64,000 nt of DNA from an uncultured Victivallales bacterium (GTDB lineage: Bacteria; Verrucomicrobiota; Kiritimatiellia; UBA8416; CAYOBW01): NCBI GenBank assembly GCA_964402115.1, contig CAYOBW010000003.1, positions 24,086 through 88,085 of the forward strand, read 5' to 3'. Below are positions 1,995 to 53,627 of this stretch, in pieces; position 1 is the first letter of the stretch, and each line of letters starts with the position of its first letter. The position numbers were made by a program, and so were the translations under genes. The notes beneath the pieces were generated by a model, which was not told the DNA's origin, did not search any database, and saw only the letters and a program-made list of their open reading frames with translations.

Positions 1995-2030
1995 AACGGG
2001 TGTTGACGGGTTTTTCGAGGGGAGTCAAGC

Positions 2031-2867: not shown

Positions 2868-2869
2868 AG

Positions 2870-2904: not shown

Positions 2905-2942
2905 ACGGAGCGGCAAATGGAGCAGGCACGGGAGGCATAACC

Positions 2943-5900: not shown

Positions 5901-6062
5901 CACGAGGTGGACCTGGCATGGCAAGGCGGCCAGCTGACGGAGGCCACGCTGCGTCCCTCCGTGACGGGTCGCGCATCCGTGCGGCTCGGCGAACGGACGG
6001 TGACGCTGGAAACGACGGCGAACCGCCCGCTCAAACTGGGACCAGACCTCACGTCACGCTGA
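2943..6062 (+). CDS. Secreted GH95 alpha-L-fucosidase-like glycoside hydrolase with N-terminal LamG/concanavalin-like domain
   Basis: GGAGG SD and signal-peptide-like N-terminus. LamG motifs ([15 protein letters not shown]). GH95 motifs [57 protein letters not shown] and [11 protein letters not shown]. Confidence 0.92.
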
Positions 6063-6151
6063 GCGCGTGGGCTGCCCTGGAACGGACCGGCGCCGCGGGG
6101 CTCGCACGCCGACCCCCATCCGCCGTTGCCGCTTGCGGCAGCCCCTTGGCA

Positions 6152-6823: not shown

Positions 6824-6926
6824 CTTCTTATCCTCCTGCCCTTTTGACGCACTGTAGCAGGCCAGACCGTGCGCGTCCAACCGAGACAACGGGTTGACGG
6901 CTGTGGTATGGTCCTGGCCTGTTGCT

Positions 6927-8276: not shown

Positions 8277-8335
8277 GCTCTTTGCGAGCATTGACCTGCA
8301 GCCTGAACCCCTGCAGTCTACAACCCTTTCCAGGT

Positions 8336-11140: not shown

Positions 11141-11287
11141 GACCCGTCTCCTATGCCCGGGTGCCTGGCGGCACCCAGCCGCGACGAAAGGCACTGGAGA
11201 CAGGTTAATAGCGCCCGAAACCGGAAGTGACAAGCGAAATGCGGGATGAAGCGTAACGCCTCAGTGACGCGGAGGGGGGGGGCGATA

Positions 11288-11557
11288 ACGGCGGGGACCG
11301 CCGTCTCCACGCCTCGTCGCCTGCCCACTGGGAGCGGGGGCGTCCCGCCCCCGTAGCGAGATGGCCGGGGGCGAGACGCCCCCGCTCCCAGTTGCCGCGA
11401 AGACAGACGACAACGAGGCGTTTACCCTTGGATGCGTCCAAACGCGGATCGCCGAGTAGCGCGGGCCTCTCCGAGGCCCAGCGCCGCCCGGTGGCGTTGC
11501 GTGCACGGCCGGATTTCATGCAGAACCCGCCCGCGCCTTCGGAGAAGGCGGGGCTAC
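11288..11557. repeat. Cluster of REP-like palindromic elements (BIME-like)
   Basis: GTGG-type hairpin at 11288-11310 (minus strand). 27-bp inverted repeat pair with one mismatch at 11327-11392. Inverted pair of GTAG-hairpin units at 11456-11479 and 11534-11557, both with a CTCCG loop. Confidence 0.72.
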
Positions 11558-11630
11558 CACCCAGACGGCCCGATCCGCCAAATCGGTGGCGCGCCAAGTC
11601 GACGCGGTGTTAGAACCCACTTCCGGCAGG

Positions 11631-14600
11631 TCAGGGCACGGGGGAGTAGTCGTCTTTGTTGGGGATGCCGTCGCCGTCGGCATCTTCATCGCCGTCGCGG
11701 ATGCCGTCGCCGTCGCTATCCACGTTGTCCGGCCGCAGTCCGAGAGTGGCTTCAACGGCATCGGGCAATCCGTCGCCGTCCGTATCGGGCAGCGGCACAA
11801 TCTCGATGTCCCACTGGTGCAGCGGCTGCCCCGCCGTGCCGCCGAGGGTCAGGCGATAGCGCCCTGCCGCCAGCGGTTGGTCGCCAGTGAACAGGATGGT
11901 CCGCCCATCGGCGCCCAGGCTGAACTGTCCCGCCACCGGCGCGGTGGTGCCATCGGGTAACACGCGGGTCAGGGTCGCTCCGCCGCTGCTGATCAGCTCG
12001 GGTGCCACCGCGGTCTGGAAGGCGAAGGGCAGATACCGGCCCGTAGCGGGCAACATGCCCGCGACCGCTGGAGTCTCCGCCACGCCACCCAGCAGATCCG
12101 GCGCACCCAGCAGCGGATCGTCACCGCTCCGCTCCGCGCTCCCGCCCCACGACCAGACGGTCGGGACCCAGAGCCATAGCCGCGGCGCGGCGCCAACAGG
12201 CAGTCCCGCGGGCTCGCCTTCAGCCTCTTCCGTGGGCAGCGTCTCACCTGCGGCGAGCACCGTCTCCCAGCGCCCGCGCAGATCGTAGCCGCTCACGCCA
12301 CGCCACAGGTTGTCATTGATGCCCAGGGTGGCCGGCGCGGGAGGCGGCCCAGATGACTCGGGGGCATTGACGGTGACTGTAACCGTCCCGAGCGACGTCA
12401 GGCCGGCAGGATCGGCGACCGTGTATTGGAACGTGTCGGCGCCGAACCAGCCGGCCGCCGGCGTGTAGGTGATTGTTCCGTCGGCGTTGAGCACCAGCGC
12501 GCCATGCAGCGGGTACCCGGCCGTGCCCAGCGCCGGCAACGTCAACGTCAGCGCATCGCCATCCACATCGGCATCGTTCGTGCGCGCGAACACGATCACG
12601 GCCAGCGACTGCCCCGTGGTGGCGGCATCGGCGACAGCCACCGGCGCGTCGTTGACGGGAGACACCACCACGGTCACCGTCGCCAGCGCACTGCCGCCCT
12701 GGCCATCCGTCAGCGTGTAGCGGAACGTGTCCGTGCCGAACCAGTCCGCCGTCGGCGTGTACGTGATCGTCCCGTCGGCGTTCACCACCGCCGTGCCATG
12801 CGCCGGCCCGTCGCTCGCTGCCACCGTCACGGTCAGCGGATCGTTTTCCACATCGCTGTCGTTCGGCAGCACGGGCACGGTTACGGCCGTGTCTTCGGCC
12901 GTGGCCCCAGAGTCAGCAGCGGCCACAGGCGCGTCGTTCACCGACCGCACCGTCATCGTCACAAGGGCCGTGGCACTGCCGCCCGTACCGTCCGCCAGCG
13001 TGTACTGGAAGGTGTCCGTGCCGAACCAGTCCGCCGCCGGCGTGTAGGTGATCGTCCCGTCGGCGTTCACCACCGCCGTGCCGTGCGCCGGTCCGTCGCC
13101 CGCCGCGATGGCGACGCTCAGCGAATCGCCGTCGACGTCGCTGTCGTTGGCGCGCACGTTCACCGTGCGGGCGGTATCCTCATCGGTCGCCGCCGCATCG
13201 GCGCGGGCCACGGGCACATCGTTCACCGGCAGAACCGTGACGGTCACCAGGGCCGACGAGCTGCCGCCCTGGCCATCGGACAGCGCGTAGCGGAAGGTAT
13301 CGGTCCCGAACCAATCCGCCGCCGGCGTGTAGGCGATCGTGCCGTCGGCATTCACGATGGCTGTGCCATGCGCCGGACCGTTGGCCGCCGCAATTGTGAC
13401 GGTGAGCGGGTCGCCGTCCACATCGCTATCGTTCGGCAGGACGGCTAGGGTCACAGCCGTGTCTTCGTTCGTCGTCGCGGAATCGGCCACGGCCGCGGGC
13501 GCGTCGTTGACGGGGCGCACCGTGAGCGTAACGGTGGCTGTGGCGGTCGCTCCGCGGGCGTCGGTCAGGGTGTAGACAAAGGTATCCGTCCCGTTCCAGT
13601 TCGCGTCCGGCCTGTACGCCAGCGAGTAGTCGGCGTTCACCACGACCGTGCCATGTGCCGGCCCGTTCCCGGCGGCGATGCTGACGCTCAGCGCGTCGCC
13701 ATCCGGGTCGCTGTCGTTGGCCAGAACCCGCACGGTCACCGAGCCGTCCTCGTCGACGGCAGCCGCGTCGTTCGCGGCCACCGGCGGACGGTTGGCCAGC
13801 ACGGTGACCGTCACAGTCGCCGAAGCCGTCCCGCCCTTGCCGTCGGCCAGATCGTACGTGAAGGTGTCCGTTCCGGACCAACCGGCTTGCGGCGTGTAGG
13901 TGACCGTACGATCCGCATTGAGAGCCACCGCACCGTGCGCCGGCGCGCCCGCAACCGGCAGGCTGACCACCAGCGGATCGTTGTCCACGTCACCGTCATT
14001 CGTCAGAACGGTGATGATAACGGCCATGCCCTGGAACGTCGTAGCAGTATCGTCTTGCGGAACCGGAGCATCGTTGACGCTGGTCACGGTCAGCGTCACC
14101 GTCACCGCGGCGGACTTGCCGCCCAGCGCGTCCACGGCCCGGTACATGAAGCTGTCCGTGCCGTTGAAGTCCGTGGCCGGCGTGTACGTGAATGTCCCGT
14201 CCGTGTTCAGCGTCAGCGTGCCATGCTGCACATCGGTCGCCAGTTCCGCCTTCAGCAGCACGTTGTTCTCACCTGGTGCGCCGCCATGCAGGTCGCTGTC
14301 GTTCGCCAGCACCGTTGTGCCGTTCAGCGTCGTATCCTCGGCCGTCGTCTGCGCATCCGCCACCGCCGCCGGTATGTCGTTGACGCTGGTTACGGTCAGC
14401 GTCACCGTCACCGCCGCGGACTTGCCGCCCAGCGCATCCACGGCCCGGTATGTGAAGCTGTCCGTCCCGTTGAAGTCCGCCGCCGGTGTGTACGTGAAGG
14501 TCCCGTCCGCGTTCAGCGTCAGCGCGCCGTGCTGCACGTTCGCCCCCAACTCCGCCGTGAGCGGCGAGTTGTTCTCCAGCGGCGCGCCGCCATGGAGATC

Positions 14601-17600
14601 GGTGTCGTTCGCCAGCACCGTCGTGCCGTTCAGCGTCGTGTCCTCGCCGATCGTCTGCGCATCCGCCACCACCGCCGGCGCGTCGTTGACGCTGGTTACT
14701 GTCAACGTCACGGTCACCGCCGCAGACTTGCCGCCCAGCGCGTCCACGGCTTTGTATGTGAAGCTGTCCGTCCCGTTGAAGTCCGCCGCCGGCGTGTACG
14801 TGAATGTTCCGTCCGTGTTCAGCGTCAGCGTGCCGTGCTGCACGTCGGTCGCCAGTTCCGCCGTGAGCGGAACGTTGCTCTCGCCCGGCGCGCTACCGTG
14901 CAAATCGCTGTCGTTCGCCAGCACCGTCGTGCCGTTCAGCGTCGTATCCTCGGCAGTCGTCTGTGCATCCGCCACCGCCGCCGGTTCGTCGTTGACGCTG
15001 GTTACTGTCAACGTCACGGTCACCGCGGCGGACTTGCCGCCCAGCGCGTCCACGGCCTTGTAGGTGAAGCTGTCCGTGCCGTTGAAGTCCGCCGCCGGCG
15101 TGTAAGTGAATGTACCGTCCGTGTTCAGCGTCAGCGCACCGTGCTGCACGTTCGCCCCCAACTCCGCCGTGAGCGGAACGTTGTTCTCGCCCGGTGCGCC
15201 GTCATGCAGGTCGCTGTCGTTCGCCAGCACCGTCGTGCCGTTGAGCGTCGCATCCTCGGCCGTCGTCTGCGAATCCGCCACCGCCGCCGGTGCGTCGTTG
15301 ACGCTGGTCACGGTCAGCGTCACGGTCACCGCCGCGGACTTGGCGCCCAGCGCGTCCACAGCCTTGTAGGTGAAGCTGTCTGACCCGTTGAAGTCCGCCG
15401 CCGGCGTGTATGTAAACGTCCCGTCCGCATTCAGCGTCAGCGCCCCGTGCTGCACGTTCGTTCCCAACTCCGCCGTGAGCGGAACGTTGTTCTCGCCCGG
15501 TGCGCCGCCGTGGGTGTCGTTGTCGTTCGCCAGCACGGTGGTGCCGTTCAGCGTCGCATCCTCGGCTGTCGTCCGCGCGTCGGCAACCGCGGTCGGCCGA
15601 TCGTTCACGGAGGCAACGTTGATGGTGACCGTGCCCTCCAGGGTCAGCCCGAACTGATCGGTGACCCGAACACCCAGCGTGTCAGCACCGTTGAAGTTCG
15701 CGGCCGGCGTGTACCGCCACGTCGCCCCTGCGCCCGTCAAGGTGCCGTGGGTCGGCATCGACAGAATCTCATAGTACAGCGTGTCGTTCGGCAGGTCGGC
15801 ATCGCCGACGGGCAGTGTGATGTCGCGCGCCGTATCCTCCGTGGCCGCCACGCTGGTGGCCGTAAAGAACGGGGCGCTGTTGGCCACCGGACCCACACCG
15901 CCAAGCACGGCGAACGTGAACGGATCCTCGTCGGGGTCGTTGCTCCGCACGACCACGTCACCCTTGAACAAGCCGGCCGTCGTGGTATCGAGTGCCAGCG
16001 TGAGGGTGATGGACTGCCCCGGGCGCAGGACCAGGGAAGCCGGCACAGTCACCGTGAAACCCGCGGGCGCAACGACGCTCGCCAGGGTCAGCGCCGTGCC
16101 GCCCGCGTTCGTCAGCGTGAGGGTCGTCTCCGGCGCCGGGGCGCCCGTCGCCACGTTGCCCAGCACGATCGGCCGCGTCGCGCCGTCGGTCACCGCCGCG
16201 CCGCCAACGGTCACCGCCAGATCCTGGTCGGGCGCGTTGTCGGTGAAGCTGGCGCTCGCGGCCGCGCTGGCGTTGCCCGCGGCATCCTGCACGGCGCCGG
16301 CTGCGAGGTTGACCTGCACCGTACCGCGCGTGAGGCGGTCGCCGTCGTCGCTGTACCAGTAGCGCACGCGCCCGCCGCCCAGCTCTTCCACGCGGTCAAC
16401 GTCCACGCCGGTGACCGTCAGATCGGCGGCGTCAAACGCCCCCGCCGCGAACCCGCTGCCGGCTTCGGTCCACTGCACCTCGATATACCCCTCGTCCACG
16501 GCGATCGAGCTGCCCGCGATGGGCGCGGCCAGGGCGCCGGCGGGCGCGGCGGTATCGAGGGTGAGCGAGAGCGAGACCGTCCGCGTGCCCTCGACGTTGG
16601 TCCCCTGCACGCGCCACACCTGGAGCCCTTCGGTCAGCGAGAGGCTGTCGAAGCTGAACTCGCCGGCGGCGTTGGCCGTCGCCGTGCCGTCGTCGAAGCC
16701 GTCGCCGTCGAGATCCAGCAGCACCTGGAGGTCGGGCTCCGTCACGCCGCTGAGGGTGACCGTGCCGCGGCTCGTGATGCCGTCGCCCGCGGCACCGCTG
16801 TCGGATGCGGCGTCGAGGTTGACTTCGATATCGGGGCCGACCCCCTCCTCCCAGCGCACGTTGTCCAGGGTCGCCTGGCTCTGGGCCGCCCCGATGCTGA
16901 TCAGGTCATAGAAGAGGACCACGGGCGCGCTGGGGGCCACGTCGCGCAGGCTGATGCTGACCTCGATCGGCGCGGCCAGGGACATGACGTCACCGGAGGC
17001 GCGAACACCGCGAATGCGGACGCGGTTGCTGAAGAAGACGTGACCGTCCGCCTGGATGTTCAGCAGCGCGTCGCCGCCGGCCAGGCCGCCCATGGCGCCG
17101 AAGGCCGAGGTCAGCGTGGCGCGCTGGAGCAGGGCCACTTCGAAGGCGTCCGGCGCGGTGCCGGGGTTGGCCGACAGCGTCAGGCTCGAGATGGTGAAGC
17201 GCAGCACGCCGATGCGGTCGGGCAGGTTGAAGGCCTGGGACAGGTCGCTGAAGAGCTGGCCGCCTTCGGAGAGACGCGCCGTGCCGCCTTGCACGCTGAC
17301 GGCCCCGAACGTATTCCAGCCGAAGTCCGCGGCAGCAGGGTCGCTGACATCGAAACCGCCGTTGGTGATGTCGTCCGGCAGCGTCTCCGCGAAGTCACCC
17401 GCAAAGATCGTGAAGCCCGGCTCCGGCGCCGCACCAAGCTGGTAGCTGACGCGGGCGATGCCGGGATGCACGGCATTGGCGGCGGCCAGGGCTACGCGAA
17501 TCACCGATCCATCCAGCGCGGACGGTAGACGCCGCTCCCCGAGGCGCAGCGTGGGGGTCATGGCCGACGTCGGGTGGGCAGCGGACTGAGCATGTTCGCG

Positions 17601-20600
17601 GTCAGCGGCCAGCACCATGTCCACGCCGGGGCCGTCGAAGCGTACGCCGTCGGCATCCTGCGTGACATAGGACAGGAAACCGGAGAACTGGGTGGTGAAG
17701 CCCAGCAGGTGACCCACTTCATGAACGAGCAGCGAGAGGAGGTCGTAACGCAACGCCACGTCGCTGTCCACGGTCGCCTGGTACGCTCGGTCGCCCTGAT
17801 ACAGCGCATACTCGTCGGACGTCTGCGGCGTCGTATCCATGTACCAGCCCGCGCCGCTGGCATCGCGATCCACGCCGATGTAGCCGGCGACAGGCTCCCC
17901 GTGTGCCCCAAACGCCGTGATCGCGGCATAGCCCAACTGGCTTCCGGCCAAGTCGTGCAGACCAAGCGTCAGCGCAAATGTCGGCGTGTAGCCCAGTGCG
18001 CTGGACCACCATGACAGCGCGGCCTCTCCCAATGCAACGAGCATCGAGTCCGCATTCACGGTTTCAGCCGGGGTTTCCGTGGGCGGCAACGCGACGATTC
18101 CGTCCCCCGTACTCGACTCCGCCTGCAGGGAAATGATCGTTCCCCGATAGCCGCCCGGCATGGCTGTGAACTTGTTGTAGGCGGCATTGATGTCGAGTTT
18201 CCCGCTCTTGAAGAACGGCGCAAACGCTTTGCCGGCGCCGCTGGGATCCCTCTGCATGGCGTTCAGGATTGTGCGCTCGATGATCGCCTGTGCTTCTCCT
18301 ACTTGCGCTTGCGCGAGGCCACCGATCTTAAGGTCTATGTCTGTCGATCCGCCGCGCATGGGCGCTTTAGCCAAATCGGCCGCGCGTCTGAAGGTACGGC
18401 CTTCGACGCCAGACGCCCACATGGCCTGCTGAGCATTCTTGAAACGGGCTCCGGGCATGCCGGCTGTGTAGATATCAAGCACCGCGTCGAGCCGTTCACC
18501 CATATCGGAGAGGCGACTTCCCAGGGATCCCATCAGCTCAATCTGGGACGACGCGGCGGAAAATCCCTGCGTTCCGGTCACCGCCTGCCCGGCTTCCCGC
18601 AGCACGGCCATTTGCTCACCCGAAGCCAAAGTGGCTGTCTTGCTTTCGCGCATCAAGCCGAAGATATTGTCGCTGTGCTTGGCGAATAACTCCTCCACCT
18701 TGCTGGCGGCCGCGCCCTGCACTTCCGGCCATATGCCGCCACTGTTCTTGATTAGTCCGTTGAGTTTCTTGAAGCGATCCTGCGCCTTGAGGTAGAGGAC
18801 CCGCATCTTGGCGCTGGTTCCAGGCGTAGCGGCCAGTTTTCCCATTTGCGCGATAGCACCCTCCAACTTGGCAGATGCGGCAGCCGCCTTGGCGTTGAGC
18901 ATGCTACCCTCGGCGGCGTATTTAAGGTGTTGCCATTGTCGCGCCTTGAGGACCTTGGCGATTTCTCGTACTGGGTCTTTACCCGCCAGTGTGGCCCTGT
19001 TGTAGACTGCGGCCAACTCCGGGAATTCCTCCAACTTCTGGAAACGATAGAACTCCTTGCCTGTCTCCAACATGCGTTCGTAGGGGCGAACGAGTGTATA
19101 GCGAACCCAATCGTCGATACCATTGGCGATTCGGGCCGCATCCCCGACTTTGTCGCTGATGCGAAGCCCCTTGACGGCGGCCTTCATGACCGTCCCAAAC
19201 CCTGATTCGAACACCTTACCCGCGAAACGCGCCACCTTGCCTACACCGCCAATCAACATGATGGGGTCGAGCACAAAGCTGGCGACGTTACCCACACTCT
19301 CGCCGACAGAATAGTAGTCGCCTGACTCAAGCGCTCCCACGAAGTTGCCCAGGAAGGATGCCACCGCCGGCGCGACGACTTCGGAGGTAGCCGCCCCCAC
19401 AAGCGCGACGACACCAAAGGCGGCGGAAGCGATTGACCCCATGCCGTCGCGCTGAGCCCAGTCATACTCCTGGTTGAAGCGCTTCGCCACGATATCCCAA
19501 GCCTTGCCGGTCTTGTCGGAACCGTTCATGTAGTCCTGAATCAGCCAGCTCTGCGGCTTGTACGTGGAGAGCCAGTTCTGGTTGTACGCGAACGCCCCGA
19601 AGGCGTCGCCGACTGTCAGCAAGGTCTCCTTAACCACCGCTTTGCCGATGTCGTAGAGGGCCACGACGCCGTTTCCGAGGGCATTGCCGAAACCTTTCGC
19701 GAAATTGGTGATGCCGTAACTGTCCGGACTCGGCGTAAACAACAGATACGGCTCCGGCAAAGTAACCGTCTTGTTGGGGCTTCCGATTTCCTTCAGTTGC
19801 GCGATGACGGCGGGGTCCATGGGTTGCGATACAGTTCCCGTCGGGTCGGTCATGCCCACCGGGTTGTTCTCGACAAACCGGTAAAGGTTCGTGTCGCCGG
19901 CGTCGAGTCCCAGCGGATCAAGGCTGATGAAACGCCCGCCGACGGGGTCGTAGTAGCGGGCGCGGAAGTAGTAGAGCCCTGTCTCCGCGTCCAACTCACG
20001 CCCCTGATAGAGGTACCGCGAGGTAGTCGTCGGCGTTGACTGCGAGGCCACGCGACCGAAGAGCAAATACTTAATGTGGTTGACCAGAGCGCCGGCATTG
20101 TCCACCAGATCCGTGGTGCTGTTGACCTGGTCTGTCAACCGCCAGAGAACCAACCCTTGGCCGTTATCCTGCGCCAGGGTCTGGTCGGCGCCTTCGCCGC
20201 CGAAATAGACCCACGCCAGGGCTGCATTCGCCGCACCCGGGGCGCGCACGCATTCGACCAGGACATTCACACCGTCGTAGAGGAAGTGCTCGGCTGCCGC
20301 GGCGACACCGTCAGTCGGCGTTGTGTCCACGCGACGCGCTATCCGGCGATCGAGGACGTCGTATGTGTAGTCGGTCCGCTGGCTGAGCGTGTCGTTGTGG
20401 TCGTACTCGACGACCGTGGTCAAGCGATTGCGGTAGTCCCACGTATAGACGCGCTTCGCGCCACCCGCAATGGCCGTTGCTGTCGCCAAGTTGCCAGCTC
20501 CGTCGTACGTGTAGGTATACACACCATCGGACATGACACGGTTACCGGTGCCCAGCGTCACGTCGGTGCGGTTGCCGTTGGCGTCGTAGGCGTAAATCTC

Positions 20601-23600
20601 GGCCGCACGGCTATCGCTGTACGTGACTCCTGTCACCTGTCCCGAGGCGTCGCGCGCGTAGGTACGGGTACCATCGACGTCCGTGACGGTCATGATTTGC
20701 CCGGCAGCGTCATAGGTAAAGGAGAAGCTGTTCAGGGCCGAAGCGCCCGACGTGTGTACGATCCCTGCGAGCCAGCCGGACTGGGGTTGATAGGTGTAGG
20801 TTGTGCTGGTCACAGCCGAACCGGTGCCCAGCGAAGCGTACCGGTCTACGCCCGTCAGTTGGCTGTCGGCGTTGTAGCTGTAATGCACCGCCTTGTCCTG
20901 CAGCCCGGGGCCGAACTGCGACATGTCCGTCCGGCGCCGGAGCAGGTCGTAGTCGTAGAGCGAGGTAATGCTGCTGAGGCCCGTCACGCCACCCACCGTG
21001 GCAGACATCATCGTGAGGTTGTGCCCAGCGTCGTACGTGTAGATCAGCACCAGGGTCGGCGCGCCGGGATTGGTCGCATCCTGCCGAATAAGTTGCCCGT
21101 CGTCGTTGTACTGGTATACGTACGAACTGAAATCATCGTCTGCCGTCAACAACCGACCCTCGGGATCGTACGTCCAATGCGCAGCGTACGATTCGCCAAC
21201 CCAGACTTCGTCCGTCTTGCGGCTACGTCTATCGTAGGTGAACCGTCGTGTCCGACCATTTCCGTCTGTGATCGTCTCCGTGTTCCCGGCGTCATCGTAC
21301 GTGTAAGACGTGCTTCCGGCGGGTGAGGTCTCGGTCTTAAGCTGGCCACGGTCGGTGTAGGCAAACGTCGTTTCATTGCCGAGGGGATCGGTCACGCTCG
21401 TCCGTTCGCCAGCGGCGTTGTATTCGTACAGCGTCGTCCCCGTGGGCGTTACTTCCCGAATCAGGCGACCCAGCCTGTCGTAGTACCAGGTTGTCGTGTG
21501 GTCATTTCCGTCCGTATACGTATTCTGGAGACTGCCGTACGTCCACTCCTGCGTAGCGCCGCCCCGCACGGATTGGAGGGTTTGCCGGTTCAGCCGGTCG
21601 TAGTCGTAATCGGTGACTCGACCCTGCTCATCCATGAGCAGCGTCAGGTTGCCGTTGGCATCATACTCGCGTGCCTCGGACAGGCTGTCGGGACCCGTCA
21701 CCGTCTTCTGCCGCCCCACCCCATCATACGTGAACGTGGTGACGCGCCCGAGTTCATCGCGTACGCTCTGCAGCAGGCCATTGTCGTAATAGAACAGGTT
21801 CTGCGTATGACCCATCGCGTCCTTGATTTCGGTCTGGCGATTCAATGGATCGTATTCGAAGCGTTCAGTCTTCCCGGCGAAGTCGGTGACGGCCTTCACA
21901 TTGCCAACGGCGTCATACGTGGTGACACTGGTTGCCCCGGTGGGATCGATGACGTGCGTGCGACGGTTGAGTTGATCGTATCGGTATAGGGTTGCATAGC
22001 CGCGCGGGTCAGTGACTGAGGTCTGATTGCCAGCCTTGTCGTATGTGTATGAGAAGGCCGCCTCGTCGGCTGAACCCTCGGCGTAGGTAATCTTGGTCAC
22101 TCGATGCAACGCATCGACGTCGTACTTCGTGCGGCGTCCCAGCGGATCAATCTCCAGCGTCTTGTCGCCAACCCTGTTGTACTCGTACTGGGTTGTCTCG
22201 CCGTCCATGGTTGTCCGCACCAGGCGACCGAAGGCATCGTACTCGTTTTCCGTCAGCAGGCCGTGCGAGTCGAGGGACCACTCGACCAGCCCGTCGAAGC
22301 CATAGGTCCACGTCTGCTGTTCAGCCGAGCCTTGCGCGCGGATGAGGAGCACTTCGCGGCCTGCGTTGTCGTACGCATGGAACGTCACCGTGCCGTTCCC
22401 ATCCCACTCTGACACGATGTTGCCGAAGTCGTCCCGCTCCGTCCGTGTGGTCACACCTTCGGGGCGATTCGTCGCTTTGAGAGAGTTGGCGCCATCGTAC
22501 TCGAACGTGGTCCTGTTGCGCAGCGCGTCCTCCTCAGCTTCCAGTCGACCGAGGTCGTCGTAGAAACGCTTCTGGATGACAATTCCACCGCGAGAGACTG
22601 ACTTGATCCTGTCCCCGTCATCGTAGGCATACGTCGTCGACCGGTCGAGCGCGTCCGTCACACTCTCGATTCTGCCGAGTTGATCATAGCCTGTGACTTC
22701 GGTCTTTCCGTCGGCACGTGTCGTTACGGTCAAGCGGTTACGCTTGTCGTAGTCGTACCGTGTCGTGCGATTCTCGCCGTCAGTCACGCTCTTGACGTTG
22801 CCCACCAAGTCGTATGTCTGCGAGACAACGACCCCGAGCGGGTAGGTCGTGGTGATGACCCGATTGAGGGCGTCGTAGCCGTAGCTGGTTACATTCCCTT
22901 CGCTGTCGGTCTGCGACTGCAGCCGGCCCTTGGCATCGTAGTCAAGCTTCTCCTGAACAGTCTGCCCGCCACCCGTGTAGGTGATCGTGCGCACCCGATT
23001 AAGTGCGTCGTACGTGTACGTCTTGACGAGCCCTCGCACATCCGTCTCGGTCTTGACGTTGCCGAGCAGGTCGTAGGTGTAGCTGGTGGTGCCTTCCCCC
23101 GTGATGACGGAGGTCCTGCGGTTCATCTTGTCGTATTCGTATCGCTTAAACTGGACGCCGCGTCGCTCTGACTCCAAGTTGCCATACTTGTCGTAGGCGT
23201 AGGCGGTCGTTGCCTCCCGGTCCGTGCCGACGGCGTCGACCGTGCTCGCCACGCGGGCGGTGGCAGGGTCGTACTCCGTCCCCGTCACGACTCCGCCCGC
23301 GCTGCGGTGCTCCAGAAGCAGACCGGCCGGGTCGTAGTCAAAGGTTTCGTACGTGCCATCCGGAAGGTCTACACGGGTCCGCCGATTCAGCGGGTCGTAG
23401 GTGCTCTCGGTCTCGCGATTCAAGGCGTCGATGAAGAAGGTCTGATTGCCGTTCTCGTCGTACTTGAACGTGTGCTGTGTGCCGTCCGCGAACTTGACCC
23501 CCGTCCGCCGGCCCGCGTCATCGTAAGTGAATTCCGTGCGCCGCCCCTCCGGGTCCACTTCCGCCTTCACACGTCCTACCTTGTCGAGTTCGTATGTGGT

Positions 23601-26600
23601 TGTAGCGGTGTTGGAAACGGTTTGCCCCTTCAGGCGACCGCGCTTGTCGTACTCGTACTTGAACAGAAGACCGCTGATGTCCGTCTTGTCGGTCAGCCAC
23701 CCGTTCTTGTTGTAGACATACGTTTCCGTGGCCGCGCCGCTGCCATAGCTTACGGTCTTGGGTTTGTCCAGATCGTCGTAGACCGTCACGGTGACGTAGC
23801 CCAACGCGTTCGTGATGCTGGTACGACGCCCCATGGCATCGTAACCGTAGCTTTCAACTCCGCCATCGGCGAACTTCGTGCCCTTGAGCCGTCCCTGCCC
23901 ATCGTACTCGTTCGTCGTGGTCAGACGACCGTTGACCCTGATGGTCTCCACCTGGCCGTCCTTCGTGTACGTATACGCCACACGTCCGGTCGGACCGTCG
24001 GCGGTGATGAGCCGATTGCGCTCGTCGTAATCGTAGGTTGTGGTCCGCCCGAGGGCATCCGTCTTGCTGCGGAGATTGCCCAAGCTATCGTACCGGCTGA
24101 CGTTCGAGTTACCCAGGGAGTCGGTGACAGTCAGGGGGTTGCCGAGGACGTCGTAACTCGTTGTAACCGAGTACCCTCGCGCGTCCTGACTCGACTTGAC
24201 GTTCCCCATGTCGTCGTACTCGTTGACCCGAGTGTTGCCCAGCGGGTCGGTTGCGGAAACCGGCCGATTCATTACATCGTACCGGGTGATCCAGCGCTTG
24301 CCCTCCTCATCGATCCGCACTTCCGGGTTACCGTAGTCGTCATACTCGCACCCGTTGCTGCTGCCGTCGTCAAATGTCACCTGCACCAGCCGTCCGTACT
24401 GGCCGTACGTGTAGCTCGTCTTGTACCCCATGGGATCGGTCATCGTCGCGACCTGTCCGTTCCCGTTGTAGGTGAGGATCGTCTTGACGTCCCCGTAGTC
24501 CGAGGTTTCGAGGGTGGATTCCGTTCGGTTACCATTCGAGTCGTACTTGTACCGTGTAACGCGGCCCAGAGGGTCTGTGACCGACAGGATCTGGTTGAAA
24601 CGATCTTCGTAGGTGTAGGTCGTCGTGCTGGTAACGCCCGTCTCGCTGTCGTAGCGGGCCAGCTTGAGCAGGAGCCCCTTGCCCTGATCGTCGTAGGTGT
24701 ATGTGGTGACGTTCCCGTCGGCATCGGTCTTGCTGACGGGTTGGTTGTGCTCGTTACGCTTGACCTCCAGAAGGCTGCCCAGGAGGTCGACGCCTGACTT
24801 GTAGTAGCCAAACTGATCGATGATGTAGGTTCGCCGCTGCCCCTCCTCTGTGACGAAGACCGCCTTCGGCTCGTCGTCCAAATTCACAGCCAGCGGAGCA
24901 TGCTTCGGATCGCGGGTGTCGAGGGGATTGTAGAAGCCGAGCAGTTGGGCCGGCAGCAGTTCTGAGGCACGCTTGCCAAACGCACTGCCCCCGATCACGC
25001 GACCCGAGTTCTTCCCTGTCGGGCCATCGTAGAGGATCGTGTCCGTCTGGTTGTTCTTGTCCTTCTGCCCCACGAGATGATGTTCCTCGTCGTAGTAGAA
25101 CTCCCGAATTGTTCCATCCGGGTCTTCGATCGAGATTAGATTGCCCTTGCCGTCCAACTGCAACCGCGTGGTCCGGCCGAATGGGTCGATGATCGTCACG
25201 CCCGAGGAGGAGACGCTGATCCGCGTCCGCAGACCCACGGGGTCCGTGACGCCGCTGAGGTCGCCGGCGGAGCTGTAATCGTACCTGGTCTTGTTGCTAT
25301 TCCTGTCGCGCACCTCCACCAGTTTCAGGCGTCGCGGCAGACCGGTGACGTTAAGCGCTGCACCCTTCTTCTCAACGTCCTCGAACCGGTAGACTGTGCC
25401 GTCAGGCATGGTGCGCTCGTAGCTGCCGTCCGCCAGTTGCCGCAGGGCCGAGAAATCACCAGGCTGTCCGACCCATGGATCGCCAGCGACGGGTGGCGGC
25501 GCGAAGGAGCTCTCATCCCCATTCCCGTTGACCAGCAAGACTCCGCCGGCGTCGAGGTTCTCATACAATTCGTAGTATCCCTCAAGCCCCCAACCGGCGC
25601 CAAACGGGCTCTTCTGATAGTTGACAACAGCCATCGTCCCGACATCGGGGGTGAAGGCCCCGTCAACGAAGCGCCCGTTGACTTGCTGGAACAAACCCGT
25701 CTCCAACGTGTAGCGGTAAAGCCCGGTGTAGGCGTCGCTCAGGTCAATCTGGATCGCCGCACTGATGTTGTCGGCGCCAGGTACGCTGAAGAAGTTCTCG
25801 CCGCCACGCAGACCCATCGCCGCGTACTCCTCCGTCAGGACAAGACCGTCAGCCTGCGTGATGTAGTCGCCCAAACGGGCATCCAGCCGAGCGATCAGGT
25901 ACTGGCCCATGTACTTGACCGGCACATCGGCGTAGGTGAAGTGGAGGATCGGCTTGGGATCGGCACGCAAAGAGTCGTAGTGCAGGGTCAGACCGCGTGC
26001 AAGGCCGAGGGATTGATAGGGCACGACCGAGTGGGTTTCGTGCAGCACGCCCGAGTGCATCTCAGCCACGGCCGAAATGCCGACCGGAACGGTTTCCGGC
26101 GCACTGCTCAGGTTCATGTCGCCGAGGGCGGAGCGCATGTTGTACGCGTTGTCCATCGTAGGCATCAGGGTCCCGGTGGCCGACTGCACGGAGATGCCAC
26201 GCGGGTTTCCGCCGATCTCGATGGGTGTGAACTGGTTCGGCTTGCTTTGCCAGTAGTAGTTGAATTTCGACACACCGAAAACGAGCCGCCCCCCGACGAA
26301 CTGCGCCGCGCCGCCCGCACTGACTACCTTCTGCTCGCGGAACGTGTACTCGTCACGCTTGAGTTCCCTCTCACCCGTCGAGAACGTGCCAAAGGCATAG
26401 AAACGTGCGTCCGCCGCCGTATCGATCATGTGATTGATGTCGTCGATCGGAACCCGCCAGAAATCCGTCTGGGAGGGGTCAAACTGCACCTGCGAATCGC
26501 CTTCCAGCGTGGCGATAATCTGAATGATGTCGAAACCGAAGACGCTGTCTACGCCCGGATAGGCGGCGTAGAGGGTGCCCGTCGAAAGCGAGGCGGCCAG

Positions 26601-29600
26601 GTTGTCAGGGTAGGAGTACGGGACGGGACGCGTGGCCGCGGTGATAGTCGCACCCGCTGCCAACGGATCGCGGATGATGCCCACATTGCCGCCAGCCGCC
26701 ACCGCAACAGGGATTTCGATGGTCGCCGACTTCAGCCCCAGTTTCTGCCAGACGCCATCCGGGAAGGTATACGTGAAGGACGTGAGAAGTGGTCCCAGGT
26801 TGGGGTCACGCTTGGGATCGCCCTCCCACGTCCGGTTGTAACCTGTCACGAAAGCGTAGGCGGGATGATCCTTGCCTATCTCCTTCTTGAACGTATTAGG
26901 CGCGATGTACACGACAGCCTGGGCGTTCGTGACCGAGAAGAACTGCTGGTAACGTCCGCCCACGTTCCCGAAAGGCAAGAGATCAATGTAACTGGGTTTC
27001 TCATGAATGCCAGTTTCCGGGTTGTAGCGCAGGACGCCCACGCCCTGCGTATCGCTCCGGCGATCCGTGAAGAGCATCACGTTGGCATCGGACGTGGCGG
27101 CCACGCCGTACGGTGTGGGGCCAACCGCAATGACTCGGCTCGCTTTGTTGGTGTCAAACTGCGGATTGCCGAGAACGGGATCTGCCGGGTTCGTCGGCGT
27201 CAGGCGCGCAGCGTACGGATCGACGTCCTTTGCGACACTCAGGTCCGTGTCGATGACAATGATATGGCCAGCTCCGGTCGGCGCCGCGCCGAAGAGGTCA
27301 GCCGCGGGAGCCGCCACATAGAGCCGCTTCTGGTCGGCACTGAGCGCCAGGCCGCGCAACCCCACGGGAGCGGGTCCAACCGCAATGGTGCGGACATGCT
27401 TGTTGTAAGACCTTGAGAACGGGTCGATGTCGATGACGTAGACGTTGCTGATGCCATCCGGGGAGGCTGACGCATCGGAAACGTAGGCGTACTTGCCAAG
27501 TTGGTCCACGGTGATCCAGAACGGGGCCGACCCGTCCGGGAGATTGATGTGGTTGAGCCCCGTGGTTTCTGGCTCACCCGCCTGGTCGGGTAGCACGTCG
27601 ATCTCGTGCAAGGCTTGCGCGTCCAGCACGGAGACACCCGAATGCCCCCACAACGTAACGTACACGCGGGACAGGTCGGGCGTGATGGCTGTAGCCCGCG
27701 GGCTGCTTAACTTGTAGTTTGGATCGACGTAGATCTTCGCCACTTCGATGGGTACGTACTTGCTCGCGTCGCCAGCGCCCTTGATCGCCTCGGTCCGCGT
27801 GGTGTCCACAACCGTCACGTAGCCGCCCGTCGCGTCACCTGAGTTGGCCGCAAACAGGTACTTCGTCTGCCGCAACATGCGCACCGTCTCGCTCCAGAGC
27901 GTAACGGTGGTAAAGCCGGTTTGGGTACTCGAACGCGTAACGAAGCGTCCGACGGCGATTCGCGACACGCCCAGCGTCACCGTGTTCGGCACTTTCAGAC
28001 GGATTTCGCCGGATCCCAACGTCAAACCGCTTCCCGTCACGCGAACATCCAGCGCACCCGCCTGAATGATTGAACCGTCCTCCGCGAAGCCATCCTGCAT
28101 GCCCATGACAAACGTTACAACGAAATCCGCGGCTGCACCCACGAACTTGCCTTTTATGACCAATTCAGGTCCCGTCGACGTTGTTTCCATGCTTGCCGCA
28201 GTGACGACTGGCTGCACGGGGTTCTGCGTTACAAAAGGCCTTGGTGTGACGACCGCACCGAGATTCTTGGCGATAGGCTTTTCGTCGGTTCCTTTGACAA
28301 ACTGAACGTTCTCGCTGGTCTTCGCGACATAACTGCTTTCGTTGGTCGCGCGATACGTCAAGGTGGCCTCCAGGCCGGCGACGGGGATCGCGAAGTCGTT
28401 GAATAGACCGGGGATCACATGGTACTTCTTCCCGCCGGTGGGTGTGTCGACCACGATGTCAGTACCAGATCCGCCCATGTTCCCCATGGCCAAAGCGGCC
28501 GTTCCAAAGGAAGGAGCGCCCACGAACATGGCACCGCCGACGTTGGGACGCATGGCAATTCCGGTCGAGTCCACGGCCCAATCGCCATTGTGCCGCGCAT
28601 ACGGCGGTGACGTGGTGCGGGCGTAGCCATCCGCGCCGACCACCAGGCGGTCGACGATCAACCAGGAATCCTCGTACTGATCCGGTCCCAGCACCGTACG
28701 AACCGGCTGGAACAGGAACATGACGTCGCCAACCGCATACCCTGCGGGGGCAGGAATGGCGGCCGAGAAGTCCGCACCTACAGCGTCACTGCCGGTATCG
28801 AGAGCAAAGCCACCCTGGAACGACCAGCCACCGGGCAACGCATACGGCATATCGGCTGCGCTCTTGGACGCAACGGTCACGGTCGTGCCTTCGGGCAGAG
28901 CGCCCGCACCAAAGCCAATCACGGCGCCACCCGGCGCGGCAACCAGGGCGCCGCTGCCGCCGACGGTTCCGCTGTTGGCCGTGGGCGTAAGCACGCTGAT
29001 GGGCACTACGCGGCTCTGGCCGCCCAGCACCACGGTAACCTCCGTGACGCCCTGGGCCAACGCCGTGAGCAGCCCGTCAACGGTGATACTAGCCACGCCC
29101 GCCTTGGCAAGATAGTAGACCGTTCCCTGCGCGGCGGCGGAACGATCCACGATAGTGGCGATATCCACCTTCTCGCGAATGACGAACTGGCGTGTCTCGC
29201 CTACGGTCAGTGCGTACGTCGATGGGAAGAAGTCCAGCAGCGCCATGTCGGGATCGCCAACAGTAACAGGTGTGGCAGCAGTGCAGCCCTTGGCCATGAT
29301 GACGATGGTCGTGATCCCGTTGGCGAGTGCCACGACCTGACCATGCGCGGTCACGCGGGCAACGGCCGGCGACAGCGATTGGTACGTCACGTAGTTGGTC
29401 GGCAGGGCAAGTTCCGAGCCATCTGCGAGAATGCCGATCAGGGTCAGATTTACTACATCGCCGATAGCGAGGACTCGATCGCGCTGGCCAATGTGGATGG
29501 TTGTGAAGACCGGTTCGGTCACCGTCACCGTCACCGCTGCGACGGCGGATGTCGCCAGCCCATCGTCTGCCCGCAGTTCGAAGCCGGCAGCGCCGACATA

Positions 29601-32600
29601 GCCGGCGTCGGGCGTGAAGCGCACGAGACGACCGCCGTCCAGCAAATCCACGCGGCCGTGCTGCACGTTTGCGACGATGAAGCGCACGGCATCGCCATCG
29701 GCGTCGGTGGCGGTAGCGCTGAGGTCAACGGTTGTCGCGAAACCCGTATAGGCGTTGGCCGCCACCGGCGCTACAACAGGCGGCCGGTTCGCAACGAAGC
29801 CATAGCTGCTGTCGAGGTAGGCCCCGTCAGCGGCACCGACATGGCCGTCGCGATTGGCATCCGCCCCGACCACGTACCCGGCTTCGCCTGTGTTGGTCCC
29901 GACGGCCGCGACGAAGAGGGCTGCGTCATTCCCGTCCACGGCGCGATCGCCGTTCACGTCGCCAGCCAGGTACGCGCTCAGGCTGAACGTACCCGCGGTC
30001 GCGGCAGTCGCCCCGCTGACCGCGACGACGTAGGGCGCGCCGGCGGACAGGGTGTACAGCGCCAGCGCATCGCTTCCAGCGGCCCGCTGCTCACCAGCGG
30101 TCTGCCCGATCAGGCGCGGCGCCGCGGGGCTGAGTCCGCCCGCTCCGGACAGAGCGAAGCCGAGGGTGATGCGGCCCATGGCGGCGGTCCGCAGTTCGGG
30201 CGTGCCGAGCACGAAGGCATAGTAGCGGGTCTGGCCCGCGGCGAGCGTGCCGGTCACCGGCGTGCCCAGCGACTGGTGCAGGGAGCCGAGCACGGCGGTC
30301 ACCGCGCGGGTGGCCTGCCACTGTCCCTGCGCACCGTACTCGACCAACGCGCTGCTGCCGCTGCCCGTCGTGACCTGCGTCGTCAGGAGGTGGCCGCTGT
30401 AAGCGTACCAGGTATGCGCGCCAACGCCGCGCAGGTCGTCAACGGCCGCCAGGTTGCCGGCGGTATCGTAGCGGTAGCCGAGTTGTCCCACGCCCGGCAC
30501 GGTCACACCAGCCAGCCGACCCTCGCCGTCGAAGGAGAAACCGAGACGGTCGCCGTTCAGGGCCACCACACCGCTGTCGCTCCAGTAGAGCGACTGGCCC
30601 GCCGGGCCCACGCTCTGCGTCAGGCGCCCCCCGGCGTCGTAGATGTAGCGGCTGTTGTCGGGAGCCGTCAGGCTCACGGCAGCGGAGTCGAACCGCCCGC
30701 TGGTGGGATTGTACGGCAAGCCCGTACCGCGCTGGAAATAGGCGCCCTGGACCAGGTCGAGCAGGACCGCCGGGGTCTGCAGGGAGTAGTTCACGCCTGC
30801 CTCGGGCGTCCACTGCGGCCGGTAGTAGCTGCCGCCGGCTGTCGTCACCAGGACCGGTTCGAAAACGAAGGCGGCGCGGCGCCCGTCGGGCAGATTGATA
30901 TACAGCCGCGTCCCATCGCGGAAGGCATTGTAGATGCCGGCGTCTTCCGCCCCGGTGGGCGCAAGATTGGTCGTGATGAGCGGGTCGAGACCAGCGAGCT
31001 GCCACCCGTACCCCGCGTGGCCATCCAAGTTCCCCGCGACACTGTCGTACCGGCGGGTCAGGTTGATGGTCAGGCCGTTCAACACGGCTGTCACGTCGGT
31101 CACCGTGGTCGTGTAGGAGCCGCTCTTGGCAGCCGTGTAGACCTCGACCAACCGCGTCACCTCGGCGGTACGGCCGGAGACATCCGCCGCGCGCAGCCGC
31201 AGGAGGTAGGCGCCGTTCAGCCAGCGCTCGGGGTCAAGCGTGTAGAGCGTCGCGTTCAGCACCGGCGCCGTGCCGCGGGCCAGCTCGCTGTAGGTTTCGC
31301 TGCCGAGCAGCGCAAGTTCGAGCACATATTCGTCCAGGTTCGAGTCACTGACGTTGCCAATCACGGCCGTGGGATTGCGCACGACGGTCCCCTCGGGGGG
31401 CAGGCTGAGCACCACAACCGGCGCAGCCAGATCGCTGCCGTCGCGCACCTTAAGCACCGACGACGCCGTGCCGATGATGCCATCCACGTCCACGGCCTTC
31501 GCCGTCACCGCGTAGCGACCGGATGCGGCTGGAACGAAACGGGCGCGACCGAACGAGTCGAGCGAAAGCAACACGCCGTCCACCCGCACCTCGATGCTCG
31601 CCATGTCGGCCACCCCTTCGGCAACGGCGTGGATCAGGACAGGCTGGCCGGCGGCCACGGGGAAGCTGGGCGTGAACTCGATCAGCACATCGGGGAGTAT
31701 CGGCACGTGCGAAACGACCAGGCGCAGGCTGCCGAGGGTTGAGAGGTCCCCGTCGCTGAGCGTGAAGAGCACGCTGTGTTCGCCCAGTTGCGTGGCCGAC
31801 GGCGTCCAGCGGAACTCGCCGGTCGCGGCGTTCAGCGTGGCGCCCAGGGGCAGCGCCCGCGCCTGGAACTGCAGGACGGCACCTGCGTCCGGGTCACTGC
31901 CCGGGATCGTCATCACGAACGCCTGCCCGACCAGCGCCACGTGGCCGCTCATCGGCGCCAGACCGGGCGGACGATTGACGTTCAGCACCTGGATCTGCGT
32001 GCTCATTGTGTCGGTCAGGCCGCCCGGATCGACCGCCTTGAACGTGACCGTATGGACACCGGCCTGGTCGTAGCCCGGCGTCCAGGTGAAGTACTGCGTG
32101 GCCAGATCGTACTTCGCCCCCGTCGGCAGCACGCCATCCACCGTCACGGAGATCGGGTCGAGGTCGAAGTCGCCAACCTGCACCGTGAACGCAAGATCAA
32201 GCCCCTCCTGGGTGAGATAGCCGGGGAGCGGCACAAGGACGGGAGCCTGGTTGACGTTTGCCACGGTGATCAGCACGGTCTCGCTGCTGGTGCCGGCGCC
32301 GTCGGATACGGCAAAGCGTACCGAGTAGCGCCCGGCCTGGTAGAGATCAGGGGTCCACGTGAATACGCCGGTCGTCGGGTTGAGGCGGGCGCCCGTCGGC
32401 AGCCCGTCGGCGGTATAGGTAAGCGGATCGCCGTCCGATTCGATGGTCGAGAGGTTGATGGTCAGCTGGCTGTTCTCAAGCACCGAGGCGCCACCCACCG
32501 GCATCAGCATGGGCGCGGCGTTGGCGGCCCTGACATCGAACACGACGCTCTGCGCCGCAAACAGCGCGTTCGCCGGGGTACCGTTACCGCCATCTGTCAC

Positions 32601-53417: not shown

Positions 53418-53627
53418 CCGCCCCCTCAGAGCGCTCGAATCGGTTGCAACGTCACTATCGATACGCCTCCTTCCATGGGAAAGGCAAGTGCTTTTTTCTC
53501 TTTTTCTGCCCCCGGCGGAGCGCTGCCAGTCGGCCGCATGCAACGCCATCGGCGCGCGTTTCGACTTGTTATGCAATGGCGTCTGGGCCATAGTCTCGAC
53601 GCGTTTATTCGACATCGGGGGGATGCC

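Follow-up and report, generated by a model that had tools for sequence, protein, structure and literature searches.

To our knowledge, in all RHS/YD cages described so far, those of the Tc toxins, of the Rhs effectors of type VI secretion systems (T6SS), of bacterial teneurin-like proteins (BiTLP) and of the mosquito protein SGS1, the cargo lies at the end of the polypeptide chain. An RHS cargo has been regarded as limited in size by the cavity, to about 15-35 kDa. In a stretch of 64,000 nucleotides from an uncultured Victivallales bacterium (GenBank assembly GCA_964402115.1, contig CAYOBW010000003.1, positions 24,086 to 88,085; hereafter the window, with positions counted from its first letter) we found a gene for a giant protein of 13,994 residues in which an RHS cocoon is located about 80% along the chain and in which the RHS core is followed by a 573-residue block, a leishmanolysin-like metzincin and an adhesin arm. 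We assign the protein to a known kind, the RHS cages with an autoproteolytic core and a variable cargo; new are the internal slot for the putative cargo, the unusually large cages and blocks, and the conserved arm downstream. With a probability of roughly 60%, the block alone is the caged cargo, the arm lies outside and the core cleaves itself.

Described cages and how the locus compares

The BC cocoon of the Tc toxins (TcdB2-TccC3, YenB-YenC2) has in common with the giant protein a large RHS cocoon of about 200-250 kDa, a beta-propeller, the core motif and the Arg/Asp/Asp residues, and it probably also has in common the hypervariable, positively charged, unfolded cargo that stands right after the cut (PMC6868009). 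About 30 kDa fit into a Tc cocoon of some 250 kDa; among the natural cargos of P. luminescens the largest has 35.1 kDa, and Tc cargos require an isoelectric point (pI) of about 8 or more (PMC6868009). The chain of a Tc toxin terminates in the cargo (up to 35 kDa), for which TcA is the route of injection, whereas here 2,160 more residues follow the 61-kDa block and the cage lies within a 1.5-MDa adhesin. Neither TcA nor TcB/SpvB families were among the Pfam matches of the giant protein and of the scanned flanking open reading frames (ORFs), a scan that did not extend to TcA in the rest of the genome.

In SGS1 (PDB 8fjp) the Rhs/YD shell is followed by an aspartyl-protease site, shielded hydrophobic helices, a second protease site, which is cut by furin, and a domain outside the shell (PMC9935623). 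The giant protein appears to have the same order, and the furin site after the caged helices is a precedent for a second cut (PMC9935623). The SGS1 tail has about 630 residues, a host protease acting in trans makes the second cut and the outer domain is Tox-SGS; here, by contrast, the tail has 2,734 residues and the candidate protease is a metzincin in cis.

BiTLP (PDB 9pt5/9ifo) and T6SS Rhs effectors (8qjc, 7q97, Tse5) have an autoproteolytic core, and the core of the giant protein has its Arg and two Asp at identical spacing. Their cleaved C-terminal domain is hidden in the shell, and some of these domains are hydrophobic and membrane-active (PMC13018210); the BiTLP cavity has about 44,000 cubic angstroms, with cargos that average 15 kDa (PMC13018210), and both SGS1 and BiTLP shells shield hydrophobic helices inside (PMC9935623, PMC13018210). 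Unlike the block described here, these cargos are terminal and short. Signatures of PAAR/VgrG or of FN-plug/NHL were not found in the giant protein.

The polymorphic toxins surveyed by Zhang et al. (2012) likewise combine a repeat stalk with a module for processing or a pre-toxin (RHS, HINT, metallopeptidase) and with a variable toxin that behaves as a cassette, and multi-toxin proteins of up to 13,652 aa are on record (PMC3482391). In these toxins the releasing peptidase is N-terminal to a C-terminal toxin, after which comes an immunity gene (PMC3482391), whereas here the cassette is internal, the peptidase is C-terminal to it, a long conserved arm follows and there is no evident immunity gene. 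The giant protein has the variable region with a sharp boundary at DPxG that marks a classical RHS toxin, without having this region at the C-terminus within a few hundred residues of the core; and it has both catalytic Asp, the last of which metazoan teneurins have lost.

The combination of core, variable block and metzincin-adhesin arm was not found described in the full-text literature, supplements excluded, which is no proof of absence. Nor does this arrangement appear in the available excerpts of PMC3482391, PMC13018210, PMC9935623, PMC6868009 and 10.1101/2023.11.21.568195.

The giant gene and its RHS core

The ORF extends from 53615 down to 11631 on the minus strand, encodes 13,994 aa (about 1,476 kDa) and is free of stops in its frame over 41,985 bases. 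An earlier note on this DNA had dealt with positions 11631-26075 only. That interval does contain the last 4,815 codons of the gene; its upper limit, however, is the entry into the RHS array, and with its start at 53615 the gene is about three times longer. It is a single real giant gene, the product of which is cell-surface or secreted.

Pfam RHS_repeat matches the protein with E 1.7e-176, and TIGR01643 in 17 stretches. A local hidden Markov model (HMM) of the repeat finds 33 repeats over aa 9488-11260 (1,773 aa, 197 kDa). The array is closed by an RHS repeat-associated core that scores 83.4 bits with NCBIfam TIGR03696 (Rhs_assc_core; cut-off 32.5; profile positions 1-75 of 76) and 89.6 bits in the genome-wide search. 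This core aligns with those of solved Rhs effectors, YenC2, TccC3, a bacterial teneurin-like protein and mosquito SGS1 (E 8.5e-12), and weakly with teneurin chains (E about 5e-4 to 1e-3).

The motif NNPVGMTDPTG ends the core at aa 11250-11260, the last base of its Gly codon being 19836, and exactly 2,734 residues follow, both as stated before. The putative aspartyl autoprotease residues are R11220, D11233 and D11257. Their spacing (-13/+24) is identical to that of R2103/D2116/D2140 in BiTLP and also matches the SGS1 site. Self-cleavage of the core requires one Arg and two Asp, and the metazoan teneurins, which do not cleave, are without the last Asp (PMC9935623, PMC13018210). The Arg and both Asp are retained in all nine members of the family described below. 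The cut is expected one residue past DPTG, at T11261|V11262, because in the analogous SGS1 the last Asp is 2729 and the cut is at 2733|2734; likewise, the YenC2 fragment in 4igl ends one residue past the aligned Gly. The residue after DPxG is highly variable among 101 homologues (L, H, N, M, T and others), and Thr in this position is therefore no sign of decay. The cocoon is complete and apparently self-cleavage-competent.

A block replaced between conserved flanks

The earlier note had proposed to align homologues and to see whether the flanks are conserved while the block varies. This was done, with a positive outcome in eight further proteins, two of which, the closest relatives P0118 and the ORF of genome G122, are collinear with the giant protein. 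P0118 is collinear with the giant protein from aa 7893 to 11262 (34.6% identity over 2,917 columns), and the alignment resumes at aa 11866 (42%). The G122 ORF aligns in one high-scoring segment pair of 8,611 columns (39.5%) and in a separate one that takes in the RHS array and ends at aa 11263; from aa 11833 onwards the two proteins align again (42.7% over 1,088 columns). In both proteins similarity stops at DPxG and comes back at the start of the metzincin, with a block of 573 aa here, of about 280 in P0118 and of 890 in G122 in between. Among the nine blocks of the family only one of 36 pairs aligns (BLASTP, E<=0.01), namely 73 residues of the present block with that of P0107. As judged from these alignments, the block is a swappable cassette that is replaced wholesale between conserved flanks.

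One of the replacements can be named. In P0120, of which the core ends at 713 and the metzincin starts at 1606, the block contains PT-HINT (1207-1331) and Endonuclease_NS (1413-1525). The same nuclease stands directly before the metzincin in P0108 and P0122, both without RHS, and PT-HINT stands there in P0117, which is also without RHS. The slot in front of the module has therefore been used repeatedly for toxin-type domains. In P0003, P0027 and P0098 no toxin families are contained in the precomputed Pfam lists; the G122 block gave only sub-threshold matches to zincin effectors (Peptidase_M91, E 0.06) and the G064 block only a sub-threshold apolipoprotein-like match. An ADP-ribosyltransferase reading of part of the P0120 block, based on motifs seen by eye, was not supported by Pfam at E<=1 and was abandoned.

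The block of the giant protein is rich in Lys and Met (Lys 6.6% versus 1.9% across the whole protein), has a pI of 9.2 versus 4.4 for the rest of the protein and is predicted to be all-helical. Its two Gly/Ala-rich hydrophobic stretches are candidate membrane-inserting helices. With its basic character and these two helices, it looks like a cargo. Homologues of the block were not found among 1.84 billion representative proteins (0 matches at E<=0.001) or by tblastn in its own genome, and 60 related genomes yielded only one chance-level match (E 0.003). Pfam recognizes no family in it even at E<=10.

Towards its C-terminal end the block contains the motif GGSTDIDL (aa 11745-11765), which has similarly placed counterparts in GSSDVDL of P0107 and LSTDIDA of P0003; the blocks are otherwise unrelated. 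A nucleotidyltransferase reading of GGSTDIDL, with one 73-aa alignment (E 3e-6 to 5e-6) as its sole support, was set aside.

Both junctions of the block are real

The assembly is a metagenome bin fragmented into 578 contigs, with a completeness of 81.5% and a contamination of 6%. Window positions 17400-20300 were partly present in 18 public runs of 12 studies, all of them freshwater or lake metagenomes, and in seven of these 18 runs at least half of the sampled words were found. Logan contigs of four runs from three studies, one run of which may be the source of the assembly, were aligned to this region and cover it with 0 gaps and 0-1 differences. The junction between core and block (19836) is bridged by X1 record 4 (19154-20277), X2 record 18 (19700-19960) and X7 record 29 (19699-19904), and the junction between block and metzincin (around 18116) by X2 record 14 (17400-18293), X1 record 2 (17814-18508) and X7 record 24 (18039-18228). 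The stop or frameshift near 18100 that, according to the earlier note, would have betrayed fused genes is thus not there: the contigs pass both junctions without insertions or deletions. The gene and both junctions are real and not an assembly fusion.

In run X10, five RNA contigs lie on 17400-17615 and 18095-18869 with 0-1 differences, a weak hint of expression, as such libraries can contain DNA; stretches that no RNA contig covers are uninformative.

Cage size and block size

Array spans were determined with a local RHS-repeat HMM trained on this family for the six members with complete arrays; G064 and P0120, which start within the array, and P0107, which starts in the core, were excluded. 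The spans and the respective block lengths (in aa) are 1,274/280, 1,613/428, 1,773/573, 2,653/673, 2,636/873 and 3,157/890, which gives a Spearman coefficient of 0.94 (p 0.005, n=6, related proteins). Length in residues is here no more than a stand-in for the volume of the cavity. In a control with 96 ordinary large RHS proteins the correlation of array span with post-core length was weak (Spearman 0.21, p 0.037).

The ratio of cargo to array in 67 ordinary RHS proteins with at least eight detected repeats has a median of 0.234 (5-95% range 0.12-0.52). In the metzincin family the ratio of block to array is 0.22-0.33, whereas that of the whole tail to array is 0.67-1.54. Only the block is therefore proportioned like an RHS cargo. 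This ratio and the published cavity figures agree with the previous suggestion that the whole fragment of 2,734 aa (280 kDa) is too large for the cage.

The metzincin module and the adhesin arm

The order that had been read from the sequence after the core was borne out: the 573-aa segment is followed by a domain with HExxH, by Ig-like domains, by 12 repeats (at least 11 had been counted) and by a TSP3-like tail. The module of aa 11846-12258, composed of the metzincin domain and a beta-sandwich, was aligned with its homologues (15 modules, alignment A1). Invariant in A1 are H132, E133, G135, H136, M186, R195 and a D..G.GW motif. The column of the third zinc ligand has H in nine modules, E in two, D in three and a gap in one. 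The giant protein has the H there (in REH), preceded by an insertion of about 35-40 aa; shorter homologues carry the canonical HExxHxxGxxH.

Leishmanolysin has a long insertion between HExxHxxG and the third zinc ligand. An AlphaFold2 model of the module built on A1 (mean predicted local distance difference test score, pLDDT, 81.7) matches leishmanolysin (GP63, family M8; 1lml_A) over model residues 19-243 with Z 11.2 and a root-mean-square deviation of 2.7 for 161 aligned residues of 17% identity. The two have in common the metzincin fold, HExxH and the Met-turn; unlike in leishmanolysin, the metzincin is here fused to a CBM/MAM-like sandwich in bacterial giant adhesins. Whole-length Foldseek matches of the module to meprin were weak, and a PDB profile search gave karilysin at E 0.0056. 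The curated metzincin models stay below their cut-offs on the giant protein (Peptidase_M10 14.9 bits versus 24, Zincin_1 13.1 versus 22.4); the homologue P0117 reaches 27.1 bits with Peptidase_M10. From its residues and its model the metzincin looks functional.

The linker of about 20 residues between block and metzincin, which is not conserved in A1 ahead of the first helix, is a candidate site of a second cleavage. In the arm, NF012211, PF17892 and PF17963 match the tandem repeats in 12 stretches each (E 6e-238 to 1e-200). The D-rich tail is matched by Pfam TSP3_bac below threshold (17.3 bits versus 25), and no recognized sorting signal was found in the C-terminal region aa 13751-13994.

The same genome has, on contig C34, a second giant ORF (12,418 aa, cut by the contig end), in which the beta-sandwich recurs with 41% identity at C34:1083-1859; the core search found no RHS core in this ORF.

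Recurrence in relatives

When proteins of 2,647-8,425 aa, a length-biased sample, were searched with the C-terminal 331 residues of the RHS region, 104 large matches were obtained, in 101 of which the local HMM found the core. After the core, 96 of these 101 proteins have 22-996 aa. Four (P0098, P0027, P0003 and P0040) have more than 1,700 aa after their last core, and the fifth outlier, P0042, has two cores, the second with an ordinary tail of 297 aa. Among the 12 longest post-core tails, three (P0003, P0027 and P0098) bear the metzincin module with 32-40% identity, followed by cadherin-like repeats. Searches from the side of the module added P0107 (one of 11 matches), which begins inside the RHS core, and P0118 and P0120 (two of five matches).

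When the A1 profile was run on 400 genomes of the same phylum and on the own genome, the module was present in eight of the 401 at E<=1e-10. Three further genomes were examined: in G122 an ORF of 16,521 aa carries both the core (14248-14322) and the module (15213-15636), in G064 the core occupies 1253-1327 and the module 2096-2442, and G321 has the module without the core. Altogether the succession of core, unrelated block of 280-890 aa and arm of metzincin, beta-sandwich and cadherin-like repeats is found in nine proteins or genomic ORFs, the giant protein included. P0027 comes from a Chthoniobacteraceae bin and P0120 from Plasticicumulans lactativorans, and the architecture is therefore not confined to one lineage.

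The own genome has eight other RHS cores (contigs C11, C1, C252, C558, C94, C556 and C398), which have ordinary tails of 171-518 aa; the longest of their open frames has 4,681 aa. Conventional RHS toxins are thus present in this organism as well.

An internal RHS core is rare (five of the 101 proteins of the length-biased sample) and is not limited to the metzincin family. P0040 (2,742 aa, from a Lewinellaceae bin) begins with DUF6531 and an RHS array, of which the core ends at 1028; then come about 500 unassigned residues, which are followed by CIA30/CBM domains, seven SprB repeats and, at the very end, a sorting domain of the type IX secretion system. P0040 is an independent case of a putative internal RHS cargo, and its terminal secretion signal may be the reason why the cargo is internal. 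For the metzincin family a C-terminal secretion signal that forces the cargo into the chain was considered and found no support, as there is no conservation among the C-termini; RTX repeats form the end of P0121 only, a protein that lacks an RHS core.

P0042 (4,026 aa) consists of two complete RHS modules in tandem, with DUF6531 twice and cores ending at 1799 and 3729, after which follow about 300 and 297 aa, respectively; these would be two cages on one chain. The last approximately 170 residues of P0098 are an Arg/His/Pro-rich low-complexity repeat. It resembles an out-of-frame translation of a repeat array and points to a frameshift or a gene-call error in the record.

Proposed mechanism

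We propose that the core cuts the chain after T11261 and that the 573-aa block is held partly unfolded in an enlarged cocoon, as are the cargos of Tc toxins, T6SS Rhs effectors, bacterial teneurin-like proteins and SGS1. The C-terminal fragment of 280 kDa would nevertheless stay attached, because its first 570 residues would be trapped in the cage. The chain would leave the cage at the disordered linker, and the arm would bind to a target surface. Two ways of release can be envisaged, both speculative and both already raised in the earlier note. In the first, the metzincin, acting in cis, would cut the linker and thereby free the cargo; that a leishmanolysin-like metzincin stands one linker of about 20 residues past the block makes a second cut plausible. 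In the second, the cargo would be pulled out while still joined to the arm, and the two hydrophobic helices would be exposed to the target membrane.

One can go further and picture the caged cargo as a ball in a socket, for which, however, the odds are in our estimate clearly below even. The cage would grow with its cargo, arrays of 1,274 to 3,157 aa going with blocks of 31 to 100 kDa, the largest of which has about three times the mass of the largest known RHS/Tc cargo; and the caged cargo would join the 280-kDa arm non-covalently to the 1.2-MDa stalk. Binding of the arm to a target would then be followed either by the metzincin cut or by a pull that extracts the cargo, with helices or an enzyme being exposed at the target surface. 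A toxin would in this way be delivered upon contact and without an injection machine.

Points against caging and alternative explanations

Several points weigh against a caged cargo with the arm outside. Cleavage, encapsulation and toxicity are all three deduced from sequence, and the chain would have to exit from a closed cocoon. The block matches no known fold or family: besides the Pfam search, an AlphaFold2 prediction without an alignment reached only pLDDT 41, and look-alikes in the Atlas were weak (0.90, 122 shared features), among them a phage P22 gp16-like protein (0.86) and PT-TG (0.80). A basic block is found in only three of the seven members computed (the giant protein, P0118 and P0107), those of P0003, P0027, P0098 and P0120 having a pI of 4.4-6.1. 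The scaling of array and block rests on six related proteins, with three members dropped, and the family blocks of 61-100 kDa are larger than any RHS cargo on record. Directly after the giant gene, neither the gap nor the next gene offers a candidate for an immunity gene, which speaks against a classical pair of interbacterial toxin and immunity protein. Finally, the metzincin module occurs without an RHS core in P0119, P0121, P0122 and G321 and, according to the precomputed Pfam lists, in eight shorter proteins without RHS; a scan with a single protein as the query gave only five alphaproteobacterial loci, none of them with an RHS core. The cassette is therefore a general part of giant adhesins and not a dedicated device for cargo release.

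An alternative is that the cage is structural as in teneurins: the shell would not cut itself and would give a giant adhesin a rigid hub, while the block would be an internal linker that plugs this shell. The chain would continue uncut into the arm, and no toxin would be delivered. The domains past the shell of metazoan teneurins do lie outside, uncleaved (PMC9935623, PMC13018210), no toxin family was found in eight of the nine blocks (Pfam scans, precomputed Pfam lists), no immunity gene follows and the rest of the protein consists of adhesin-type repeats throughout. Teneurins, however, are without the last catalytic Asp, which together with the Arg and the other Asp is kept in nine of nine members; a structural linker would not be swapped wholesale (280-890 aa) between flanks that are 35-45% identical; and the block of P0120 has PT-HINT and a nuclease. 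We regard this explanation as unlikely.

A polyprotein, which we rank behind a structural cage, is improbable as well. The autoprotease would here merely split a giant precursor into two independent surface proteins, an N-terminal CARDB/Ig adhesin with the shell and a C-terminal metzincin-cadherin protein, and the block would not be a cargo but a fast-evolving spacer or a pro-region of the metzincin. The cassette of metzincin, sandwich and cadherin-like repeats is indeed present in many proteins without RHS, and the block, like a pro-domain, comes immediately before the protease; the blocks are also poorly predicted helices. Pro-domains, however, co-evolve with their protease and have no reason to scale with an RHS array, and against a spacer speak the ratio of block to array, which equals that of ordinary RHS cargos, and the PT-HINT and nuclease domains in the same slot.

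An artefact, by which mis-assembly or the loss of a stop through a sequencing error would have joined two or three adjacent genes, is most improbable. In its favour one could adduce the fragmented bin and a drop of the GC content at third codon positions (GC3) to 0.735-0.785 at aa 7893-11833 versus 0.84-0.86 on either side. Against it, contigs of three studies span both junctions with 0 gaps and 0-1 differences, this order of parts is encoded in a single frame in eight independent proteins, and the frame of the giant gene is open over 41,985 bases.

Other parts of the giant protein and neighbouring genes

The features of the giant gene are collected in Table 1. The N-terminal 7,892 residues contain two Laminin_G_3 domains, more than 21 CARDB repeats, nine He_PIG repeats, Big_9/cadherin-like domains, a dockerin-like domain and Big_2. 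Near aa 80 (aa 75-90, window 53300-53400) they contain the motif ELEGLEPRILLS, the counterpart of which in the G122 homologue is ELEALEPRILLS. It seems to resemble a motif frequent at the N-termini of large exoproteins of Planctomycetes and Verrucomicrobia. By inspection with the eye no hydrophobic Sec signal was seen at the N-terminus of the giant protein, and none before ELEGLEPRILLS.

The region after these residues is considered beta-propeller-like from a weak match of the Lactonase/WD40 type and from lactonase-propeller matches in the homologues P0119 and P0121; its GC3 is 0.754. The GC3 of the block is 0.735, the fifth lowest among 269 windows of the gene.

Table 1. Features of the giant gene, with positions in the 64,000-nucleotide window and in the protein
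Feature	Window position (strand)	Residues (aa)	Remarks
N-terminal region	29940..53615 (-)	1-7892	Laminin_G_3, CARDB, He_PIG, Big_9, Big_2
Big_2 and beta-propeller-like region	26076..29939 (-)	7893-9180	Start of the unit collinear with P0118
RHS/YD array	20070..26075 (-)	9181-11182	28 Pfam RHS_repeat stretches
RHS repeat-associated core	19836..20069 (-)	11183-11260	TIGR03696
Variable block (putative cargo)	18117..19835 (-)	11261-11833	573 aa, 61 kDa
Two Gly/Ala-rich hydrophobic stretches in the block	19227..19448 (-)	11390-11424, 11440-11463	Kyte-Doolittle 19-residue window >1.4
Linker of about 20 residues, block to metzincin	18057..18116 (-)	11834-11853	pLDDT <50 for model residues 1-19
Leishmanolysin-like metzincin domain	17466..18056 (-)	11854-12050	HEVGH at aa 11965-11969 (window 17709-17723)
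CBM/MAM-like beta-sandwich (jelly roll)	16842..17381 (-)	12079-12258	CBM4/16/22 and MAM, Z about 10-13
Ig-like domains	15882..16841 (-)	12259-12578	Big_13, then choice-of-anchor D/DUF1573/HYDIN-like
12 tandem-95/Cadherin_5/Big_9 repeats	12366..15881 (-)	12579-13750	Pfam, NCBIfam
C-terminal region	11631..12365 (-)	13751-13994	D-rich TSP3-like calcium-binding tail at aa 13942-13994

Upstream of the giant gene and on the same strand are encoded a short SecA-like protein (58840-60939 (-), 699 aa; SecA_DEAD, PP_bind, P-loop) and a protein of 718 aa (60825-62981 (-)) with Peptidase_M50 and a weak match to HlyD_3. The two could form an export system specific to the giant protein, in which no Sec signal is visible; synteny of these two genes with the G122 locus was not found.

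Downstream, an ORF of 130 aa in the gap (11205-11597) belongs to no family and has a non-coding-like composition. The next gene (8336-11233 (-), 965 aa) has a match to the HZS-alpha middle domain (E 2.4e-20) and a weak cytochrome c motif; it has no evident link to the giant gene.

Significance

If the block is caged as proposed, cages can be enlarged by adding repeats, with arrays of up to 3,157 aa; in a paper on the engineering of Tc toxins the enlargement of the cage is an open question (PMC6868009). It would also follow that a polypeptide can leave a cage and continue as a folded arm, and the family would be a natural intermediate between toxin cages and the layout of teneurins, in which domains come after the shell. 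The conserved flanks, in the form of a core HMM and a metzincin HMM, are a handle for mining new toxin domains in metagenomes. For the uncultured freshwater bacteria that encode such giant adhesins, the arrangement suggests a route by which attachment and toxin delivery may be joined in one protein.

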